From positions 1-43,893 of the forward strand of contig JAMOTN010000029.1 in NCBI GenBank assembly GCA_027062325.1: a DNA stretch of 43,893 bases. Direction: 5' to 3'. The translations under genes and the position numbers were made by a program. How positions within the stretch are numbered: position 1 is the stretch's first letter; the number at the start of each line of letters is the position of its first letter. Of this stretch, positions 34,364 through 43,893 are shown one piece after another. Below the pieces are notes generated by a model. It saw nothing but the letters and a program-made list of their open reading frames with translations. It made no database searches and had not been told where the DNA came from. Source of the DNA: a bacterium. GTDB taxonomy: Bacteria; JAMOTN01.

Positions 34364-34390
34364 TGTCACAAATTCTTTCAACCTCCCTTC
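34364..34390 (+). promoter_or_regulatory. Candidate ECF-type promoter 1: TGTCACA-N16-CTTC
   Basis: Same motif and spacing as 37279-37305 (-) and 38888-38914 (+); just upstream of an AAGGAGGT RBS. Confidence 0.6.
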
Positions 34391-34414
34391 TTATTCAATA
34401 AGGAGGTGGTCAAT

Positions 34415-34618
34415 ATGATCATGCTAAAATTGCGCTGCCCTTATAACCCTACTATCAAGTGTCCATGGTATAATCGAAGTTTTGGTAAATGTGAAAGCTG
34501 TCCTGTGAAGAAAGGGAGCAAAAACTCTACAATTGGAAAACTCATCGATACACTAATTGAGATAATATTCAAAGATCCTCAAGTAATATTTAGAGATCCA
34601 CCTTTTCCTTTCATTTAA
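34415..34618 (+). CDS. Small four-cysteine protein (67 aa)
   Basis: AAGGAGGT RBS before ATG at 34415; C-x7-C-x9-C-x2-C. Confidence 0.7.
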   Translation: MIMLKLRCPYNPTIKCPWYNRSFGKCESCPVKKGSKNSTIGKLIDTLIEIIFKDPQVIFRDPPFPFI

Positions 34619-34638
34619 TAAGTCAAGGGGGTGGAAGT

Positions 34639-34959
34639 ATGAAAATATCCCTTTATGAATTTATAGAGAAGTTATTCAACTCAGAATTCAAACTCACTGT
34701 CGTATTCAAAGGTGAAAACGAAGAAAACACCTATTACGCTTTCGTTCACAACAGAAAAAATATACTCATACCCGTTACCAAACTTCCAAAATTATTTGTC
34801 GAAGCTTTCGAATATTTCTTAGAATTTAGAGGACTTGAAGAACCACCAAATCCAATTTTAGACCTAGCCGATTACTTTCAATTCGTAGTAGAAGAATTCA
34901 AAATAAAAAATGTCCCAATTTACGCAGAGATGCAGCTCATCTATCCCGACAAAACGTAA
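34639..34959 (+). CDS. Hypothetical protein (106 aa)
   Basis: GGGGGTGG RBS; co-oriented with the Cys-rich ORF. Confidence 0.65.
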   Translation: MKISLYEFIEKLFNSEFKLTVVFKGENEENTYYAFVHNRKNILIPVTKLPKLFVEAFEYFLEFRGLEEPPNPILDLADYFQFVVEEFKIKNVPIYAEMQLIYPDKT

Positions 34960-36175
34960 GAACAATCTCGTACTTATCATTGCTACTAACATAGTTCAAG
35001 AGGTGAACCACTAATTCTGTCTTATATTTTACCATTAAAGCACTATTTACCCCGTGCAACTCTTTCCACAAACCAGCAACAAACCATCCACCTAAGTATA
35101 CTGCACCATCAACTCCAAGCATCAAATGAACAGTTTGCACTCTATTATTTCCTAAAATGCCTTTTATTAATTCACTCAATTCGTTAAAATACTTTGGAAA
35201 ATTTTTCAGGCAGCTTTCATGTAAAGCATCGCCACTTTCAAACCTGTAAATTTTCACATTTTCCTCTGGAAAACCATCTGGTGGGACATAAGCATTCATA
35301 CCTACCTTCTTATCACCATCTCCCCCAAAATAAACCCCAACAGGCTTTTTTTGTACTATACTAGGGTTAACACTCTTTCTCTCTTTTGACCTTAAAAGAA
35401 TAAACAACTCGTTCCTTTCAAACTTAACTAAAAATTTACCTATCCACTCCAACAAAAAATTCAATTTGACCCCTTTTCTCACTGTCCATTCATAAGTTTT
35501 TGTAAAATAAGTTAAAAGCGAAATGAATCTTCTTTCTTCTATTTTTCTACATTCAGGCAACTTTTTTAACAACTCAGCTTTCTTCTCATCGTGAGCTCTC
35601 TTCAAATACCCATCCTTTAAAACCCCTGTAAAGGCAAACTCTTCTAAATCTTCTCTTACTTCCAAACCTAAATTCTCAAAAATCGCAGAAACAAATCCTA
35701 TCAAAAATGCCAAATTCCATGACATACCTGTCAGTATCTTATGCAAACCAATATCAGTCAATTCAAATCCTAAAATCAACTCCATTTCTAACTCTTCAAA
35801 ATAATTGCTTTTTAAAACATCTATCCAAACCCTCTTATATCCCTTTTCCCTAAATAAAACTTTCTCCAATTCATCTCTTAACTTTTCCAGACCTCCCTCA
35901 AGCTCTTTTAACCATGAAAGTTTCTCTTTTCCTACATTAATTTTTTCTAAAATTCGCCCCAACTCTTTCTTATTGGCAACATTAAAAACCCATATCTTGT
36001 AAATATCCAACTCTTCATCCACAATTACTGGAAAATTCACCTTAGTAATACAGTTAGTCTCTAAAAAATCTATAAAATCTGCCCTCTCAGCTTTAAGTTT
36101 CCACAAACCGCCATTTTTAATCTTACCAGTAGTAAAATCACATTTCCATTCAAGGAAAATTAATCCACGTTCCAT
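34937..36175 (-). CDS. Lon-type protease domain plus SAVED/CARF-like lobe (CalpL-like)
   Basis: TGMS152WNLA...FAFTGVLKDG...EKK199AE Ser-Lys dyad pattern; C-terminal VHLMLGV...LNYVSSNDKYEIVL resembles a SAVED C-lobe; CRISPR context. Confidence 0.65.
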   Translation of the reverse strand: MERGLIFLEWKCDFTTGKIKNGGLWKLKAERADFIDFLETNCITKVNFPVIVDEELDIYKIWVFNVANKKELGRILEKINVGKEKLSWLKELEGGLEKLRDELEKVLFREKGYKRVWIDVLKSNYFEELEMELILGFELTDIGLHKILTGMSWNLAFLIGFVSAIFENLGLEVREDLEEFAFTGVLKDGYLKRAHDEKKAELLKKLPECRKIEERRFISLLTYFTKTYEWTVRKGVKLNFLLEWIGKFLVKFERNELFILLRSKERKSVNPSIVQKKPVGVYFGGDGDKKVGMNAYVPPDGFPEENVKIYRFESGDALHESCLKNFPKYFNELSELIKGILGNNRVQTVHLMLGVDGAVYLGGWFVAGLWKELHGVNSALMVKYKTELVVHLLNYVSSNDKYEIVLTFCRDR

Positions 36176-36194
36176 CTCTATACCTCATAAATCC

Positions 36195-37226
36195 CTATAC
36201 TTCTTCAATATCAATCACAACTTCCCCTGCCTTCATAAGAGCAAACATAACTTTTAGTTCTTCTCCTTTTTGGGCATCTCCTTTATTATCTAAAATCAAT
36301 GGTAACATATCAATCTCAAACTCTAATTCATCTCTTTGATTATTCCTCTTGTTAATAAAAACCAACTTATATTTTCTTCCTCTCTCAAGTTTTTCCATAA
36401 CTTCGTCTAATATATCAATAAACAAACTAACCTTTTCTTTATACTCAACTAATTTAACCATCACCTTTTCAAATTTTTTAACTTTTTCTGGTCCTTCTGC
36501 AGCAGCCGCTAACACTATCCGTTCCTGTGGAGGACATAAGTAACTCTTTAAAACTTCATAAACTTTATTTAATACAATAACTTGAGCAGATTTACCCGAT
36601 AAAACAACCTGCTCTTTTTTTTTAACATCTGCAATTTCTAATAATTCGTCGAAATACACCAATTTCCAATTTATTTCAGCTAAGATTGATCTAACTTCTA
36701 ACCGAAAGTCTCCTTTTTTAAGGTACGGTATGCCCCGAGACAGAATAAAATGTTTTAGATCTACTGATAAAATTAAATTTGAAGCTTCTCCAACTCCTGT
36801 TAATTTTTTTATTACTTCCGCCACCTCTTCAGGAACATAAGAAACTAAATAGCAAATTTTCCTTATCGAATTCAAACTTAACGTGCAGACAGCATCTGTA
36901 AATACTGCCCACACTCCTCCTTTCATATCTCTTACCACCCAATCCTGCATATCCGCAAGAATGTGATATTTACTCACAAGCACCACATCTGCCATTTCTC
37001 CATCTTCATCTAATATCAAAATCCCAAAATCCTCAGCCCCCTCGAATACATATAAATCTCCTTCCGAAAAAATTACTGGATAATTTTTCTTCTCCTTCTC
37101 ATTTAACACTTCTAAATATTTTCCTTCAAACATTTCTTTCAAACTTCGTGCTTTTTCTAATATTTCCTCCTCATTATATTTTCCTAATATTTCCTCAACC
37201 TTTCTCTTTAATGCTTCCAACTTCAT
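36195..37226 (-). CDS. Putative anti-sigma factor/protease target (CalpT-like)
   Basis: EGDLYVF...VVLVSKYHILADMQDWVV...YLVSYVPEE resembles a MazF/PemK-like fold; LAAAAE linker; between sigma and protease genes. Confidence 0.55.
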   Translation of the reverse strand: MKLEALKRKVEEILGKYNEEEILEKARSLKEMFEGKYLEVLNEKEKKNYPVIFSEGDLYVFEGAEDFGILILDEDGEMADVVLVSKYHILADMQDWVVRDMKGGVWAVFTDAVCTLSLNSIRKICYLVSYVPEEVAEVIKKLTGVGEASNLILSVDLKHFILSRGIPYLKKGDFRLEVRSILAEINWKLVYFDELLEIADVKKKEQVVLSGKSAQVIVLNKVYEVLKSYLCPPQERIVLAAAAEGPEKVKKFEKVMVKLVEYKEKVSLFIDILDEVMEKLERGRKYKLVFINKRNNQRDELEFEIDMLPLILDNKGDAQKGEELKVMFALMKAGEVVIDIEEV

Positions 37227-37278
37227 CGCTGACCCCTCCCTGCTTAGTAGTTTGTCTTAAAGCTTCTCCATTTTGTAG

Positions 37279-37305
37279 GACCTATGTAACTACCTTCTTG
37301 TGACA
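37279..37305 (-). promoter_or_regulatory. Candidate ECF-type promoter 2: TGTCACA-N16-GGTC
   Basis: Overlaps the sigma gene stop and points at the CalpT-like gene about 50 nt downstream. Confidence 0.55.
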
Positions 37306-38136
37306 AAACAATTTTTTAATTTTTTCCCAGCACAACTTCGCACTTTCAAACTCCAACTTATCTAACTCTTCTTTGGCAATTTCTTGCATCTCCTCACTAC
37401 ACAAATACAAAGCAATTAAACATTCCTCGACTACTTCAGATAATTCTTCTTCTGCTAAGAAAAACTCTTTCCATTCTTCTTCAACAGTTTTCCAAAACTC
37501 CTTTAACTTTTTCTCAGCTCTTGACTTCTGCTTTCTAGCAACCGCAGGCATAGAAAATTTATAAATTTCTCTGCACTCATCAACAACACTGTGAATACCT
37601 CTCACAATATTTTTTAACATCGTCCAAAACATTCCTACCAATTCAGCAGGAGTAAAATTTAGGAACTTTTTCATCTCTTCAATAAATGCTTCATAGTAAT
37701 CAAGCTGAGGAATAGAAAACTTCTTATTCAAATTCTCTAATTTCTCAATATCCAACTTTTCATTATCATCCAAACTATCAATCTGTAGCTGATACTTTTT
37801 CTTCTCTTCTTCCAAATAGCTTGACCAACTATGAATAACAGTGGTTTTGAAATAATTATAATATTTACCCCACTCTCCAGATTTCGGATCAAATGCCAAG
37901 GTTTTATTTTTCATTGCTTTCTCAATTTTATGCAAGTACTTATCAATAAAATCCTCTATTATTAAGAATGGCAAATCTGGAAATTTTTTTCTGATAATTT
38001 TAACCATAATTTTTTCAACACTATTTTGCAACTCTGCTACTGCCTTCAGACTAACACCAGCATTTTCATCATGCAAAATCCTAAAATAATAGTAGAGTAC
38101 ATGAGCCGGAGTTTCCTTCCTATTCACTGTAATCAC
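37282..38136 (-). CDS. Divergent sigma70/ECF-like factor (CalpS-like)
   Basis: Region 2-like FDPKSG..YYNYFKTTVIHSWSSYLEEEKK..IDSLDD; region 4-like end VARKQKSRAEKKLKEF. Confidence 0.65.
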   Translation of the reverse strand: MITVNRKETPAHVLYYYFRILHDENAGVSLKAVAELQNSVEKIMVKIIRKKFPDLPFLIIEDFIDKYLHKIEKAMKNKTLAFDPKSGEWGKYYNYFKTTVIHSWSSYLEEEKKKYQLQIDSLDDNEKLDIEKLENLNKKFSIPQLDYYEAFIEEMKKFLNFTPAELVGMFWTMLKNIVRGIHSVVDECREIYKFSMPAVARKQKSRAEKKLKEFWKTVEEEWKEFFLAEEELSEVVEECLIALYLCSEEMQEIAKEELDKLEFESAKLCWEKIKKLFCHKKVVT

Positions 38137-38155
38137 TCCTTCAAAATAGTACTAT

Positions 38156-38827
38156 TTATTCAACAGCTAAAACTCTCTCAATAAACTTCAAAGCTTCCCT
38201 TCTCCCTCCAAACATTTTTATCAAATCAACTCCATGTTTTCTCGCGCATTCTCTAAATACGCTTTCACTTTTTCTAATATAATTCCAATATCTACTATTC
38301 AAGTAAATTTTCCTCACCCTTTTCTTTTTAGGATTAATTCCTATGTAACTAGCATTTTCCATCAAATACTCCCTACATTCTCCCTCAATACTAACCATAT
38401 CCCATTTAACAGATAAAAGATCAATTTTCAAATTTTTTACTCCTAGAAATTTAGGATAACTTGTAAGAAACAGTAATCGCTCTCCTTTTAAAAACCTCCA
38501 CCTTAAAACTGGTCGCCTGTCTTTATTCCCTAACCATCTCTCTACAACCTCTCTCAACTCTTGAGGCAAATTTTTATCAAACCTCCAGAAAATCTTATTT
38601 TTCAAATACCCAAACGTCACTGTTGAATTTTTCTCAACAATTCTAATAATCTCATCATCTGACATCTTTTTCTTAAACTTAAACTTTCTCCTATTCCTAA
38701 ATTTAACATTCCTTTTATTCTTACTTCTCTTAGTAGTTTCTCCATCCTCACTATCGCCACTTGAGCTAAAAATAAAATAACCAGCCGCCATTAACATCCC
38801 CAAAATTACTCCACCTAAACCGTTCAT
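38156..38827 (-). CDS. Hypothetical basic membrane-anchored protein
   Basis: N-terminal TM, Lys/Arg-rich; GGGGGA RBS; 19 nt upstream of the sigma gene. Confidence 0.65.
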   Translation of the reverse strand: MNGLGGVILGMLMAAGYFIFSSSGDSEDGETTKRSKNKRNVKFRNRRKFKFKKKMSDDEIIRIVEKNSTVTFGYLKNKIFWRFDKNLPQELREVVERWLGNKDRRPVLRWRFLKGERLLFLTSYPKFLGVKNLKIDLLSVKWDMVSIEGECREYLMENASYIGINPKKKRVRKIYLNSRYWNYIRKSESVFRECARKHGVDLIKMFGGRREALKFIERVLAVE

Positions 38828-38887
38828 AACTTATCCCCCCATATTTTCCAACAAAAATTCACTATCTATATTTTACTTCTTTGAAAC

Positions 38888-38914
38888 TGTCACAAAAAAC
38901 AAACCTCCCCCATC
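38888..38914 (+). promoter_or_regulatory. Candidate ECF-type promoter 3: TGTCACA-N16-CATC
   Basis: Same motif and spacing as the other two; followed by AAGGAGGTGGT and ATG at 38951. Confidence 0.6.
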
Positions 38915-38950
38915 TTTCTATAAATACCCCAATTCAAGGAGGTGGTAACA

Positions 38951-39013
38951 ATGATGATCCTCATCTTTTGGATATTTCTTAATTTAAAAAACAAAACAAA
39001 AAACCTCCCTTAA
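38951..39013 (+). CDS. Possible 20-aa peptide MMILIFWIFLNLKNKTKNLP
   Basis: Consensus RBS AAGGAGGT at good spacing; below the ORF-track cutoff. Confidence 0.35.
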   Translation: MMILIFWIFLNLKNKTKNLP

Positions 39014-39037: not shown

Positions 39038-39361
39038 CTACGCAATAATACCAGAAAACTTATTCTTAAAGTAATTCTCAACTTTCCTTAAATTTGCCTT
39101 AACTTTATTCAACACTTTGTCTTCAACAGATGTTATAAACAAATTGTCATCCTCATCCAATATTTTCTCAAGCTCTTTTAACACCTTATCAAGTTGCCTC
39201 TTTGACAAGTAACATGCAAACACACTGAACTGAACATCAACACCATACCTTCTAAGTAACTCCAAAATTTTTCTATCCTTTTTAGAATACCTAGTCCTAT
39301 CTTTCGCTCTAATATCATAAGATATGATGTAAATCTTTTTAGAAACCGTCATACATATCAC
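39038..39361 (-). CDS. cas2: CRISPR-associated Cas2 (second copy)
   Basis: YIISYDI...LRRYGVDVQFSVF...DDNLFI. Confidence 0.9.
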   Translation of the reverse strand: MICMTVSKKIYIISYDIRAKDRTRYSKKDRKILELLRRYGVDVQFSVFACYLSKRQLDKVLKELEKILDEDDNLFITSVEDKVLNKVKANLRKVENYFKNKFSGIIA

Positions 39362-39423
39362 TTGTCCTCTTGGTAGTCATAAGACTCCCTTACTAACACA
39401 ACTCTCCCTAAAAATTCATCTTT

Positions 39424-40845
39424 TCACTTTAACACTTCAAGCACATCCTTGTACAAACGCTTCAACTCATTACTCCTATAGTAAAAACCTGCTAAATTAA
39501 GCAAAACGTTCCCAGGAACAACGTAACTAACAAACCAATTAATAAAACTTTTGATCTGACCATTTAAAATTATCCTATAAGAAAACACCTCATCATCTAT
39601 CCAGTTCACTAATTCCTGAGCAAACGAAGAGAAAGTTTTGCTCCCCAACTCTTCCGCCAAGAAAAAGTTTGCTTCCCACAAACTTGAATCACCCTCACTC
39701 CACGAAGGAACATCTAAAAATCTAAATGCCACCATTAAAGCCAAATACTCCAACAAATCATCTCTAAACTCTGTATCCTTTAGCATCTGCTCTATAAATC
39801 CCACAACCAAGATTAGCAATGAAAAGTAAGCAAATCCAAACATATCAAATGCATTAACGTGGAAAAACCAAAGTTCTTTTTTACTCATATCATCGTAATG
39901 ACTCTGTCTAACAACACGTTTAATTTCGTTAACAAATCCTCTTAAAAATCTGTTAATTCCATAAGCCGAAAAAGTACCATTTCCAAGTGTATCCAGCTCC
40001 CCCAAAAACCATTCCAACTCATGTCTAACTTTCAACTCCCACTTAAATAACCCTATCAAATCAGAGCTCTTGTTTAGAGAATGCCTAAAAACTTTATTGT
40101 AACCTCCCCAACTGAACACCTCATCGGAAAACGCAGTATAACACCTACCAATCAACTTTTTATATTCATACTTATATTCATCAAGTATCCTCAACATCTG
40201 CTCTTCAGCAGGAGATAAATTGTGCTTCCCCCTTAAGAACTCGTAAAACGGCTTTCTGTAGTTCGCCCACCACTGCTTACGTATTCTCTCTTTCTCCTTA
40301 GCCCTGCCTCTCTTATCCAAAACCTTTTTCAACTCTCCATAGCTCATTTCATTCCACGTAACTTTAGCAACAATACTCTTTACCCGCCTCAAAAAAGTAT
40401 CAACTTTTTTTCTCATAGGTGTTACTGCCTCAGTCAAACTTCTGAACAAATCCGCTATATTTGGAGTTTTTAATCTATCAAGCATAAACATGTAATTTAA
40501 GCAATCAAAATTCACACAGTAGTTGTAAAACTCCCTCGCCAAATCAACGTTCTGCTTCAAAAAAGCATTTTTTAACTCTTCACGTTCTCTGCTGCTCACC
40601 CTCCTACTAATAGGAGTTACACGCTTAAATAATCCCAAGCAATTTCCAGCAAATTCCCACCTAGCATCAACTTCCCAAAAAACATCATCCGTCAGCCTAA
40701 ATTTATACTTTCCATCATCTCTTTTAACCAATAAACGTTCTATTTGCGGCACTACAATTTTGACAGTTCGAGGTTTAGTTCTTTTCTTACGATTTATAAG
40801 AACTCCAGCAACTTTTCCTAGAAACTCCAATATTCCCATTCTCAT
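39424..40845 (-). CDS. Highly diverged, probably inactive Cas1 paralogue
   Basis: Collinear by-eye matches to Cas1: IVVPQIERLLV, DLAREF..NYMFML, FLRGFVNE (cf. LRGYEG), VNAFDMFGFAY (cf. LNLFFNYAY), DDLLE (cf. SDIME), YRIILNGQI; His loop absent; flanked by two cas2 genes. Confidence 0.55.
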   Translation of the reverse strand: MRMGILEFLGKVAGVLINRKKRTKPRTVKIVVPQIERLLVKRDDGKYKFRLTDDVFWEVDARWEFAGNCLGLFKRVTPISRRVSSREREELKNAFLKQNVDLAREFYNYCVNFDCLNYMFMLDRLKTPNIADLFRSLTEAVTPMRKKVDTFLRRVKSIVAKVTWNEMSYGELKKVLDKRGRAKEKERIRKQWWANYRKPFYEFLRGKHNLSPAEEQMLRILDEYKYEYKKLIGRCYTAFSDEVFSWGGYNKVFRHSLNKSSDLIGLFKWELKVRHELEWFLGELDTLGNGTFSAYGINRFLRGFVNEIKRVVRQSHYDDMSKKELWFFHVNAFDMFGFAYFSLLILVVGFIEQMLKDTEFRDDLLEYLALMVAFRFLDVPSWSEGDSSLWEANFFLAEELGSKTFSSFAQELVNWIDDEVFSYRIILNGQIKSFINWFVSYVVPGNVLLNLAGFYYRSNELKRLYKDVLEVLK

Positions 40846-40889
40846 CTCTTCCTAAATCAACATATACCCCTTGACTATACAAACATTTC

Positions 40890-41153
40890 TTAAACTATCA
40901 TCCATCTAAAAAATTTTCTATTTCCCAAATAAATTCGCCCCTTGCAATCATTATCAGTTTGGGGAATAAAAAGCAACCTATCCCCTTTATTCAAAAGCTG
41001 AGAACAATCCCAATACAAATCATTCACTTTCTTAAAAGGGATTTCTATTTCAAAAATACTGTATTGAATCCTACAACCGTATTTTAAGAGCAAAGCAGAA
41101 ATTTTCCTCCTAATTTTATCATCTGAAATATCAAAAGCCACTAACCACTTCAT
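40890..41153 (-). CDS. cas2: CRISPR-associated Cas2 (first copy)
   Basis: WLVAFDISDDKIRRKI...YGCRIQYSIFE...GDRL. Confidence 0.93.
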   Translation of the reverse strand: MKWLVAFDISDDKIRRKISALLLKYGCRIQYSIFEIEIPFKKVNDLYWDCSQLLNKGDRLLFIPQTDNDCKGRIYLGNRKFFRWMIV

Positions 41154-41187
41154 TTCCAGATACTCCTTTAGTAGTTATATTGGCTCC

Positions 41188-42795
41188 TTAACCATTAACT
41201 TTTCTCTCTCCAAACTTTCTCAATGCTTTTTCAAAGGAGCTTATATCCTCCTTCAAAAATCTCTCCACAATTCTCAATAATCTAAACTCAAACCATTCAG
41301 AAACTACTCGCACCACCAATGAAAAATCCAGATCAAATCTTTCCTTATTCAACAACGCCCTAAGAATTCTTTCAAATTCATCTTCCTCTCTATTCTTCTG
41401 GCCATCCTCTTCGCCATCCTCGGCAGCAACATCTTTAATTACCTGCAATCTCCTAAGCTCTTCCAACAAACTTACCCATATATTATATCTCAAACTTTCC
41501 AACAAACTCTCCAACTTCTCATCCTTGCCATAAAGTGCCGTGTTCAATTCTTTATATTTACTCCTAAAAGGATGCTTTACCTCTTCTGTCCATTCCAAAT
41601 AAAGCTTTAAAATTGAACTCAATACATCAGAATCTCCCAAATCCCCATCTTCCTCACAAGCCTCATTGATAGCAATATCATTTTTAGAACAAGATTCACT
41701 ATTAGAGTTACAATTGCGTCTTTCATTTTTTTCATTATTGCCTACATTTTTACCAGCATCCGTAAATCCTTTCAAAAATCTTTCTAAGTCACCCCTTTTA
41801 TCATCCAAAAACCTATTAAAAACAACGGTATCAAAAACCACATGTTTTATGAGTAGCACACGCACTCTTTCCATAATATCCGACGCTAAAGCATAGTGTC
41901 TCCCCCTCTTTATGTGCATCACACCGAGTGAGGGATTGAAATTTTTTATCAAGAGTATGCAAGTTGTAAGGTTGTATATGAGAGTATATGCATAATTAAA
42001 GAATAGATTTAAGAAATCATTTGACTTCCTGTCACGCCTTTTAAACGCCGGATCCAAACCAAAAGTTCCTAACACATTCTTCATCAAATCAAACATGAAT
42101 ACACTAGCTCTTCCTTCATAACCCCTTAGAGTATTAATCTGCGAATCCAAGACATTTACATAAGTTTCCAGATTCCTAGCTATCCTCTTTTTATAGCTGC
42201 CTAACTCTTTCAAAAAATCATGCAGTCGCTTTTTGGTATTTTTCAACCAATTTAACAATCTAAGTCCATTATATTCACTATCAGCCTCCCCATTCTCATC
42301 AGTCCAGTTTCCATGTTCCGTCTTCACTTTCAAAAACAGTAGTTCTGTTAGCTCAAAAAGACTTACCATTTCCTGAATTTTGTCACGCACTATCTTAATA
42401 ATAAAATTTAATCTCCAGGGTGAGTTAGTCAATAACATTTGAAGTTCTCGTAATTTGTAAGCACTAAAGTAAGAAGACGGTAAAATAACCGACTTTATAC
42501 TCAAATTTCTTCCTACAATTATTACTTTTTTCTCATAGTTCGCTAATAATCCTAAAGCTTGCGTTGTTAATTGAACATTCTGTGAAACTATAAGGTAATC
42601 AATTGCAGCTATTGGAATTTGAATTTTTTCAGGATAAGAACGAGCATCACTAACTCCGCCAATATCAATTTTTTTGCTAATTCCTCCTGTAGAAACAGTA
42701 AGATTAGTAGAAGTTAGTGATGTAAGAACAGAAAAAGGCCGAAACAATAAACTTCCCTTCTCTACTCTCAACTTACCGGGTTTAAGGATTATCAT
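41188..42795 (-). CDS. cas1: CRISPR-associated Cas1, enlarged (535 aa)
   Basis: IPIAAIDYLIV, LTTQALGLL, LRGYEG (E), NYAY, LGVMH (H), LASDIME (D/E). Confidence 0.92.
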   Translation of the reverse strand: MIILKPGKLRVEKGSLLFRPFSVLTSLTSTNLTVSTGGISKKIDIGGVSDARSYPEKIQIPIAAIDYLIVSQNVQLTTQALGLLANYEKKVIIVGRNLSIKSVILPSSYFSAYKLRELQMLLTNSPWRLNFIIKIVRDKIQEMVSLFELTELLFLKVKTEHGNWTDENGEADSEYNGLRLLNWLKNTKKRLHDFLKELGSYKKRIARNLETYVNVLDSQINTLRGYEGRASVFMFDLMKNVLGTFGLDPAFKRRDRKSNDFLNLFFNYAYTLIYNLTTCILLIKNFNPSLGVMHIKRGRHYALASDIMERVRVLLIKHVVFDTVVFNRFLDDKRGDLERFLKGFTDAGKNVGNNEKNERRNCNSNSESCSKNDIAINEACEEDGDLGDSDVLSSILKLYLEWTEEVKHPFRSKYKELNTALYGKDEKLESLLESLRYNIWVSLLEELRRLQVIKDVAAEDGEEDGQKNREEDEFERILRALLNKERFDLDFSLVVRVVSEWFEFRLLRIVERFLKEDISSFEKALRKFGERKVNG

Positions 42796-43223: not shown

Positions 43224-43893
43224 GTTTCATTGCCGAACACTTACTAACGGATTACGACATATATCGCCCTCGTAGAGGGCTACGGAAATTCTCACAGTTT
43301 CATTGCCGAACACTTACTAACGGATTACGACCGAGTTCCCCTCGCTTCGGGTGTCCCCCCTTTGGGTTTCATTGCCGAACACTTACTAACGGATTACGAC
43401 AAACTAAACACTCTAGGTTTTACGGCAAAAGCATTTGTGTTTCATTGCCGAACACTTACTAACGGATTACGACGGGCTCGGGCGGGGTCCCGGGGCTTTT
43501 GCCCCCGCGCGGTTTCATTGCCGAACACTTACTAACGGATTACGACCCCCGACGCCCCAGTTGGGGGTGTTGGGGGCTCGTCGGTTTCATTGCCGAACAC
43601 TTACTAACGGATTACGACCGGTTTCCTTTTTTATGTTCCCTTTTGCAGCTGTGAGAGCCCGGGCCCCGCACCCGAGCTCCCATACGACCGGTTTCCTTTT
43701 TTATGTTCCCTTTTGCAGTTTCTGTTTCATTGCCGAACACTTACTAACGGATTACGACGAGTCTTCGACTCCCTTATTTATTTATAATGAAAAGTTTCAT
43801 TGCCGAACACTTACTAACGGATTACGACGTGAGGTCGCGGCCGCGGTCCTCAGGCCTAAGCCTGAGTTTCATTGCCGAACACTTACTAACGGA
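43224..43893 (+). CRISPR. CRISPR array, 35-nt repeat GTTTCATTGCCGAACACTTACTAACGGATTACGAC, 8 full repeats plus 1 cut by the window edge; type III-like
   Basis: Identical repeats at 43224, 43297, 43366, 43439, 43512, 43584, 43724, 43794, 43866; spacers of 38, 34, 38, 38, 37, 105, 35, 37 nt; 3' end ATTACGAC resembles type III 8-nt handles. Confidence 0.98.

Follow-up and report, generated by a model that had tools for sequence, protein, structure and literature searches.

In a bacterium of the GTDB lineage JAMOTN01 (assembly GCA_027062325.1), three copies of the motif TGTCACA-N16-NNTC precede gene starts within an island of ORFans, open reading frames (ORFs) without a family match, that adjoins CRISPR adaptation genes, and a fourth copy holds the same kind of position before a five-gene operon on another contig. 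We tentatively favour the explanation that these four sites make up a private regulon of small size with a factor dedicated to it, most likely an alternative sigma factor, with an ORFan of 284 amino acids (aa) in the island as the preferred candidate. The stretch of DNA analysed, hereafter the window, is the whole of contig JAMOTN010000029.1 (43,893 nucleotides, nt; C29 in the 81-contig assembly), and the genome to which it belongs comprises 1,647,580 bases at 38% G+C and is 84% complete.

Results

Motif copies in the window lie where promoters would lie

Scanning the window for TGTCACA-N16-NNTC revealed exactly three matches (sites 1-3, Table 1), at the positions and on the strands reported by the first-pass annotation of this DNA, where 0.27 were expected; one of 100 dinucleotide shuffles, against which chance in the window was judged, reached three. 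The bare heptamer TGTCACA is at chance level, with four copies versus 3.71 expected and 54 of 100 shuffles reaching four, and the copy outside the three sites (33903, plus strand) lies antisense within an aldehyde dehydrogenase gene and lacks the TC. The annotation had also placed each motif just upstream of a ribosome-binding site and a start codon, which the scan bears out: 24, 52 and 36 nt separate the ends of sites 1, 2 and 3 from the ATG codons of the Cys-rich ORF (34415), the 343-aa ORF (37226) and a 20-codon ORF (38951), respectively, and all three starts carry a strong Shine-Dalgarno (SD) sequence, that downstream of site 2 being GGGAGGGG.

At each of the three sites and at the fourth, described below, an A/T-rich stretch resembling a -10 element can be read 1-5 nt past the TC (TATTCAAT, TACAAAAT, TATAAAT and TATAAAT for sites 1-4). 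The distance from the heptamer to this stretch varies between 21 and 24 nt, whereas that from the heptamer to the TC is constant at 16 nt. Neither a sigma-70 scan nor reading of the sequence found a canonical -35/-10 pair at sites 1-4, in contrast to the textbook TTGACC-17-TATAAT promoter of a tRNA gene elsewhere in the genome. The number of promoter-like sites in the sigma-70 scan was uninformative (29 versus 31.1 expected), and a sigma-54 reading (TGGCAC-N5-TTGC) was rejected by eye, the -12 element being absent. In the opposite direction there is nothing for site 2 or site 4 to serve, and the orientation in which the motif is to be read is thereby fixed. On the minus strand of the gap that holds site 3 (38828-38950), GTGACA, 17 nt and TATAGA make up a fair sigma-70-type promoter; this minus-strand reading stands before the cluster of 223-, 284-, 343- and 412-aa ORFs, and the heptamer could thus serve both directions there.

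Motif placement across the genome is non-random

Both strands of the genome together hold 83 heptamers and 11 full motifs. The first-pass annotation had proposed a genome-wide scan and named a background count as the result that would speak against it; the total did fall at background, as weighed below, while the distribution of the copies was non-random. Three of the 11 full motifs fall within 4.6 kb, with a binomial P of 3.5e-6 for any one given stretch of that size and of ~1.3e-3 after multiplication by the number of 4.6-kb windows. On a crude ORF map (1466 ORFs, 93% coding), seven of the 11 lie wholly within genes and four are promoter-positioned (P ~0.0045). In 1040 upstream regions (111 kb), three exact sense matches were found versus 0.12 expected, a number reached in 0 of 300 shuffles; site 3 is outside this count because its 20-codon ORF is not in the gene set. 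The three upstream regions of 120 nt have the 8-mer TGTCACAA in common, while any common 8-mer appeared in 1.4% of 20,000 Markov resamplings and any common 7-mer among three such regions in 8.6%. Placement of the motif is therefore non-random.

The core of the heptamer is itself scarce, as GTCAC/GTGAC occurs 832 times in the genome versus 1642 expected (first-order Markov; ratio 0.51), and avoidance of a GTSAC-type restriction site could explain this scarcity. We considered that the island might be foreign DNA still unpurged of such sites, with four GTCAC pentamers versus 2.4 expected, and rejected this as the explanation of the cluster, since three of the four stand in the full TGTCACA context (83 of 832 genome-wide) and are the motif itself. 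A search of 185,579 species genomes for the compound pattern TGTCACAAA-N16-TC-N4-30-AAGGAGGTGGT gave five loci, about the number of a rough chance estimate; four of them, in metagenome-assembled genomes of Lachnospiraceae and Porcincola, repeat one sequence upstream of a common transposase-like ORF, and the fifth lies before an unrelated helix-turn-helix (HTH) gene. Within the genome, an intergenic TGTCACA at G000:C23:19706 (plus strand) has the 13-mer ATGTCACAAATTC in common with site 1 and carries CTAC, not NNTC; a canonical TTGACC-17-TATAAT promoter, a tRNA gene and an apparent tmRNA gene follow downstream of it.

A fourth site precedes an operon with two dynamin-like GTPases

Two observations made here, a fourth promoter-positioned site on contig C68 and a likeness of sites 1 and 3 that goes beyond the motif, extend the one already confirmed. 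Site 4 is an exact match with its TC in register, although it was not used to define the motif, and its spacer is like that of site 1 through much of its length. Downstream of it runs a five-gene minus-strand operon (G000:C68:2639-11663) that encodes two dynamin-family GTPases of 907 and 880 aa (Pfam PF00350, E 9.5e-17 and 5.3e-21) and three unknown proteins; the 907-aa GTPase shows a weak likeness to LeoBC, a defence protein (PADLOC, 2.5e-6).

As for sites 1 and 3, the 11-mer AAGGAGGTGGT has only two copies in the 1.65-Mb genome, at 34400-34410 and 38936-38946, both of them downstream of a motif copy and 4 nt before an ATGAT start, and the two spacers have ACCTCCC in common. The stretches between these shared elements differ in both sequence and length, so that the pattern, as far as sequence goes, looks like constraint on discrete elements. 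On the strength of the shared elements we argue that the 20-codon ORF may be expressed like the Cys-rich ORF.

A sigma-like factor as the favoured reader

That the sites are functional and co-regulated we hold to be probable. That they are sigma-type promoters is plausible but short of an even bet, and that the 284-aa ORF reads them is a good deal more doubtful. On the favoured explanation, sites 1-4 would be promoters of like build, each consisting of TGTCACAA, the fixed 16-nt spacer, NNTC and the A/T-rich stretch, with an SD and start codon 24-58 nt further on; an alternative sigma factor would take TGTCACA as its -35 and the ..TC as its -10 element. Under this dedicated factor would stand the Cys-rich 67-aa and 106-aa ORFs, which are probably co-transcribed (unit 1), the 343-aa and 412-aa ORFs (unit 2), a hydrophobic peptide of 20 aa or else an RNA antisense to cas2, into which transcription from site 3 would run (unit 3), and the five-gene operon with the two dynamin-like GTPases (unit 4). 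Promoter status, a sigma factor and not another DNA-binding protein as reader, and the identity of this reader are what we infer here. A more elaborate version, in which the ORFan island would combine an extremely divergent, sigma-like 284-aa protein with a nucleotide-sensing 412-aa protein and would pass a defence signal on to a private four-promoter regulon, seems unlikely to us. That regulon would take in the small Cys-rich protein, the 20-aa peptide, seen as membrane-type and with a transcript that also extends antisense into cas2, the factor's own partner genes and the distant operon with the two dynamin-like GTPases, seen as remodelling membranes.

The first-pass annotation attributed the motifs to a CRISPR-linked sigma factor, a label that profile searches did not sustain. 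No island ORF matches a sigma-70, Lon or SAVED model in Pfam, NCBIfam, PADLOC or PHROGs, and among the seven Sigma70_r2 and nine Sigma70_r4_2 matches in the 84% complete genome none is on the window's contig. Sub-threshold hints are found for the 284-aa ORF, to which we give about an even chance of being a sigma-like protein. Its nearest named clusters in the Atlas, with a score of 0.94, carry Sigma70_r2 (16% of members) and Sigma70_r4 (76%). When residues 5-133 of its structural model were re-aligned after a Foldseek search, the best match was sigma-E region 2 (5or5: Z 6.1, root-mean-square deviation 4.0, 89 residues aligned with a 95-residue chain), followed by sigma-E (1or7_A, Z 5.3) and then by region 2 of sigma-A, sigma-B and sigma-S, and a wide structure search independent of Foldseek gave SigI6 at Z 5.9. 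The Foldseek search of the model itself returned 0 matches at E <= 0.001 in both PDB and BFVD. These hints from the Atlas, Foldseek and the wide search, which are partly independent, weakly suggest an N-terminal sigma-2-like domain in the modelled protein. Two parts of the sequence are, by eye, reminiscent of sigma factors: a stretch with FDPKSGEWGKYYNYF at its end is like the FDP..G...Y signature of region 2.2-2.3, and LYL......EIAK, not far from the C-terminus, is like region 4.2.

A number of results weigh against the favoured explanation. With regard to the motif, only the TC of the -10 part is common to the four sites, and GTC is present in one of them; the genome-wide total of 11 full motifs equals the 10.7 expected under a first-order Markov model; and one-mismatch variants are not enriched (7 versus 7.73 expected in the window, 7 versus 3.9 in upstream regions), so that the motif set appears small and sharp. 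The likeness of sites 1 and 3 goes well beyond the motif, and the pair is thus not independent evidence. With regard to the factor, no island ORF gave a sigma-70 profile match even with E values of up to 10 allowed, a limit at which Pfam showed no sigma family for the whole 284-aa ORF or for either half of it, and hhalign of the genome's own seven sigma factors against it gave a probability of 0.13%. Its single-sequence AlphaFold2 (AF2) model is poor, with a predicted local distance difference test score (pLDDT) of 51 (residues 10-125 ~65) and low confidence in the C-terminal part, and all structural scores of the model are below the level that the tool regards as meaningful for helical proteins. 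The autoregulation usual for extracytoplasmic function (ECF) sigma factors is missing, since no motif in sense orientation stands before the 284-aa gene or before the 223-aa gene that heads its cluster. Finally, a DNA search of 40 other genomes, all of them assigned to the "same domain" and none to closer kin, returned only a 47-nt match.

Anti-sigma, protease and cyclic-nucleotide leads

The first-pass annotation had further named the 343-aa ORF an anti-sigma factor and the 412-aa ORF a protease, and nothing measurable backs either name. Pfam, NCBIfam and PADLOC gave neither a Lon nor a SAVED match for the 412-aa ORF. In the Atlas it scores 0.82 to two SAVED-bearing clusters, which is a lead only, and its C-terminal domain in the Atlas model weakly resembles a Csa3_N/CARF-like fold (template-modelling score, TM, 0.40); its AF2 model is unusable (pLDDT 32). 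Elsewhere in the genome, a Csm1 model matches Cas10-like frames on C49 (1165 aa, E 6.8e-30) and C25 (762 aa, E 1.0e-27), each short of the curated cut-off; C25 also carries two RAMP genes, with matches that exceed theirs. These type III-like effector genes are on contigs other than that of the adaptation genes and the array. With Cas10-like and RAMP genes in the genome, cyclic-nucleotide signalling is possible in this organism; a cyclic-oligoadenylate link to the regulon is speculation based on the weak leads for the 412-aa protein.

Alternative explanations

Possible, though we doubt it, is that a DNA-binding regulator, be it an activator or a repressor, has its operator in the heptamer, which would then not be a -35 element, and that the housekeeping sigma factor uses the TATAAAT-like stretches after the TC, in which case the regulator could be any of the island ORFans. 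Csa3-type CARF regulators of CRISPR adaptation genes, for instance, are sensor-domain proteins that occur beside cas1/cas2 and bind promoters of their locus. The 412-aa ORF, whose C-terminus weakly resembles Csa3_N as described above, would be one candidate; it differs from the Csa3 type in that no winged HTH is seen in it, and the similarity of its possible CARF-like part, which is C-terminal, is weak. The presence of a -10-like A/T stretch at every site and the lack of a sigma profile match in the island agree with an operator, as does the fact that TGTnACA is a small palindrome, but 7 bp is little for a regulator that binds as a dimer, and a second half-site is not seen. Moreover, it is the TC, and not the A/T stretch, that keeps a fixed distance from the heptamer, and Pfam and NCBIfam detected neither an HTH nor another DNA-binding family among the island ORFs.

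We consider it rather unlikely that there is no shared regulation, with sites 1 and 3 being copies of a duplicated expression module and sites 2 and 4 chance matches. Common descent would suffice to explain why sites 1 and 3 have ACCTCCC, both genomic copies of AAGGAGGTGGT, the 4-nt gap and ATGAT in common, and both the background total of motifs and the frequency of shared 7-mers in resamplings accord with chance. The stretches between the elements of sites 1 and 3 differ, unlike those of a recent copy, while sites 2 and 4 stand before gene starts with the TC in register, where 0.12 such matches are expected in all upstream regions, and the spacers of sites 4 and 1 are alike for much of their length; all of this argues against duplication and chance.

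Sigma-type promoters read by a sigma factor encoded elsewhere are improbable in our judgement. The genome has two ECF-sized sigma factors confirmed by profile, on C52 (183 aa) and C26 (194 aa), and these are the only ones; the missing 16% of the genome could encode another, and the site on C68 indicates that the regulon reaches beyond the island. Three of the four sites are nevertheless in the island, neither the C52 nor the C26 sigma gene is preceded by the motif, and both proteins lack the C-terminal extension that defines the ECF41 group. Two candidate motifs at these genes were discarded: a one-mismatch copy near the C52 gene is inside a permease coding frame, and the 9-mer AATCGAATA, found upstream of both ECF genes, has 13 occurrences, all inside ORFs, and is not a motif. 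Very improbable is an RNA-level element, by which transcripts with a more upstream start would have their SD masked through pairing with CCUCC of the spacer. In its favour, ACCTCC/CACCT is present in the spacer of three of the four sites, a hairpin of marginal stability relative to shuffles covers the SD at site 1 (-12.4 kcal/mol, z -1.89) and a sigma-70-like match (38845-38872) precedes site 3. Against it, the folds of sites 3 (z +0.37) and 2 (z +1.71) are no better than those of shuffles, site 2 has no anti-SD sequence and the heptamer plays no role in the folds.

Comparison with known systems

The favoured explanation, a private regulon of a sigma-like factor, invites comparison with three described systems. 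ECF41 sigma factors have the promoter consensus TGTCACA-n16-CGTC, whose -35 part is called group-specific in the published description (Wecke et al. 2012, PMC3426412), and we compared the sites with a spacer of 16 +/- 1 nt and a -10 element of CGTC or TGTT as given in that source. The resemblance to ECF41 noted by the first-pass annotation is identity as regards the heptamer and the spacer and, as regards the -10 element, extends no further than the TC: TGTCACA is present in four of four promoter-positioned sites and the spacer is exactly 16 nt in all four, three having been selected by it and the fourth found by it, whereas the -10 parts read CTTC, GGTC, CATC and GCTC, not CGTC or TGTT. ECF41 sigma factors have a fused C-terminal domain and are usually encoded next to their target gene; no sigma factor with such an extension was found in the 84% complete assembly. 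The ORFs of the window that were scanned also include no carboxymuconolactone decarboxylase, oxidoreductase or epimerase, the class to which all ECF41 targets known so far belong according to that description (PMC3426412).

By analogy of function, the best parallel is CASP-sigma of type III-E loci, which is described as having three strong motif matches inside its own locus, upstream of cas1 and of two genes of unknown function, and a further good one elsewhere in the genome (Strecker et al. 2022, PMC10028731); here, the four promoter-positioned matches comprise three island sites and one elsewhere. There are also differences. CASP-sigma was identified as an ECF factor at an HHpred probability of 100%, whereas no profile method sees a sigma factor here; no site here precedes cas1, and one points antisense into cas2; and of the partners Cas7-11, the Csx29 protease and the Csx30 anti-sigma factor none was seen here, although no search was aimed at them.

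CalpL-CalpT-CalpS is described as a type III CRISPR system of a Lon-SAVED protease, an anti-sigma factor and a sigma factor that is ECF-like (bioRxiv 10.1101/2024.05.08.593097, PMC12751052), and the portions of these two sources used here do not name a target promoter of CalpS. Going by this description, one could match its three components to three island ORFs that are adjacent, and the same genome contains Cas10-like genes; in contrast to it, the island has no Lon, SAVED or sigma-70 profile match and adjoins cas1, two cas2 genes and an array, not type III effector genes.

The island and its CRISPR neighbours

Coordinates of the sites and of the island genes are collected in Table 1. Among the ORFs in the island and the CRISPR region, family matches in Pfam, NCBIfam or PADLOC are confined to cas1 and the two cas2 genes, and PHROGs gave nothing at E below 0.019 for the island ORFs. 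The 284-, 412- and 343-aa proteins found only themselves in an index of 5.8 billion proteins, as did the 284-aa protein in a full HMMER search of 1.84 billion representatives, and PDB sequence searches with the island proteins gave a best E of 0.27. The unknown island proteins have no paralogues in the genome, where only the two cas2 copies match each other. A locus search based on Cas1 recovered only the window's own contig among metagenome contigs and nothing among genome contigs. The G+C content of the island is 32-35%, versus 38% for the genome, and the translation of the 223-aa ORF reads as a hydrophobic N-terminus followed by a Lys/Arg-rich stretch.

Table 1. Motif sites and genes of the island, with the site on contig C68
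Feature	Position	Strand	Description
Site 1	34364..34390	+	TGTCACA-N16-CTTC; intergenic, between aldehyde dehydrogenase gene (-) and Cys-rich ORF (+)
SD of Cys-rich ORF	34400..34417	+	AAGGAGGTGGT, 4 nt, ATG
Cys-rich ORF, 67 aa	34415..34618	+	four Cys; no family match
106-aa ORF	34639..34959	+	no family match
412-aa ORFan	34937..36175	-	weak leads only: SAVED-bearing clusters, Csa3_N/CARF-like C-terminus
343-aa ORFan	36195..37226	-	first gene downstream of site 2
Site 2	37279..37305	-	TGTCACA-N16-GGTC; overlaps last 8 codons and stop of 284-aa ORF
284-aa ORFan	37282..38136	-	all-helical; only candidate sigma-like factor
223-aa ORFan	38156..38827	-	heads the minus-strand cluster
Site 3	38888..38914	+	TGTCACA-N16-CATC; within 210-nt gap between 223-aa ORF and cas2
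20-codon ORF	38936..39013, including SD AAGGAGGTGGT and 4 nt	+	hydrophobic N-terminal half, basic tail
cas2, second copy	39038..39361	-	convergent with site 3 unit
Site 4	G000:C68:11663-11637	-	exact motif, -10 part GCTC; intergenic, promoter-positioned

Past the 20-codon ORF, the gene order is cas2, a 473-aa ORF, cas2 and cas1 (minus strand), followed by the CRISPR array. In this unusual adaptation module (39038-42795), the 473-aa ORF, which has no family match, sits between the two cas2 genes, whose products of 87 and 107 aa are 25% identical, and cas1 encodes 535 aa, with a Cas1 domain match that ends near residue 324 and a long acidic C-terminal extension beyond it. The array (43224-43893) has nine copies of a 35-nt repeat before the contig ends and goes on at the end of C76; it includes an irregular unit, with a spacing of 140 nt that holds a 36-nt segment twice (43613-43648 and 43683-43718), and several spacers are very G+C-rich for this genome. 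At the other end of the window, translations between 1900 and 14500 read as type IV pilus or type II secretion-like genes, among them genes for polytopic platform proteins and for three ATPases whose Walker motifs are of the GPTGSGKTTT type.

Discussion

The targets of CRISPR-linked transcription factors are largely unknown; in the accounts considered here, mapped sites are given for CASP-sigma only and the CalpS promoter is unnamed (PMC10028731, PMC12751052). Against this background, the four sites, one of them outside the locus, make up a compact and unusually clean candidate regulon, which would connect dynamin-like membrane proteins, as well as a tiny hydrophobic peptide, with a CRISPR adaptation module. 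If the more elaborate version that we deem unlikely were true, the organism would possess a defence arm leading from signalling to transcription, like CalpL-CalpT-CalpS or CASP-sigma and with no detectable sequence kinship to either. Should the 284-aa protein turn out to act as the sigma factor, it would mean that sigma-like factors can diverge past the reach of all current profile methods.

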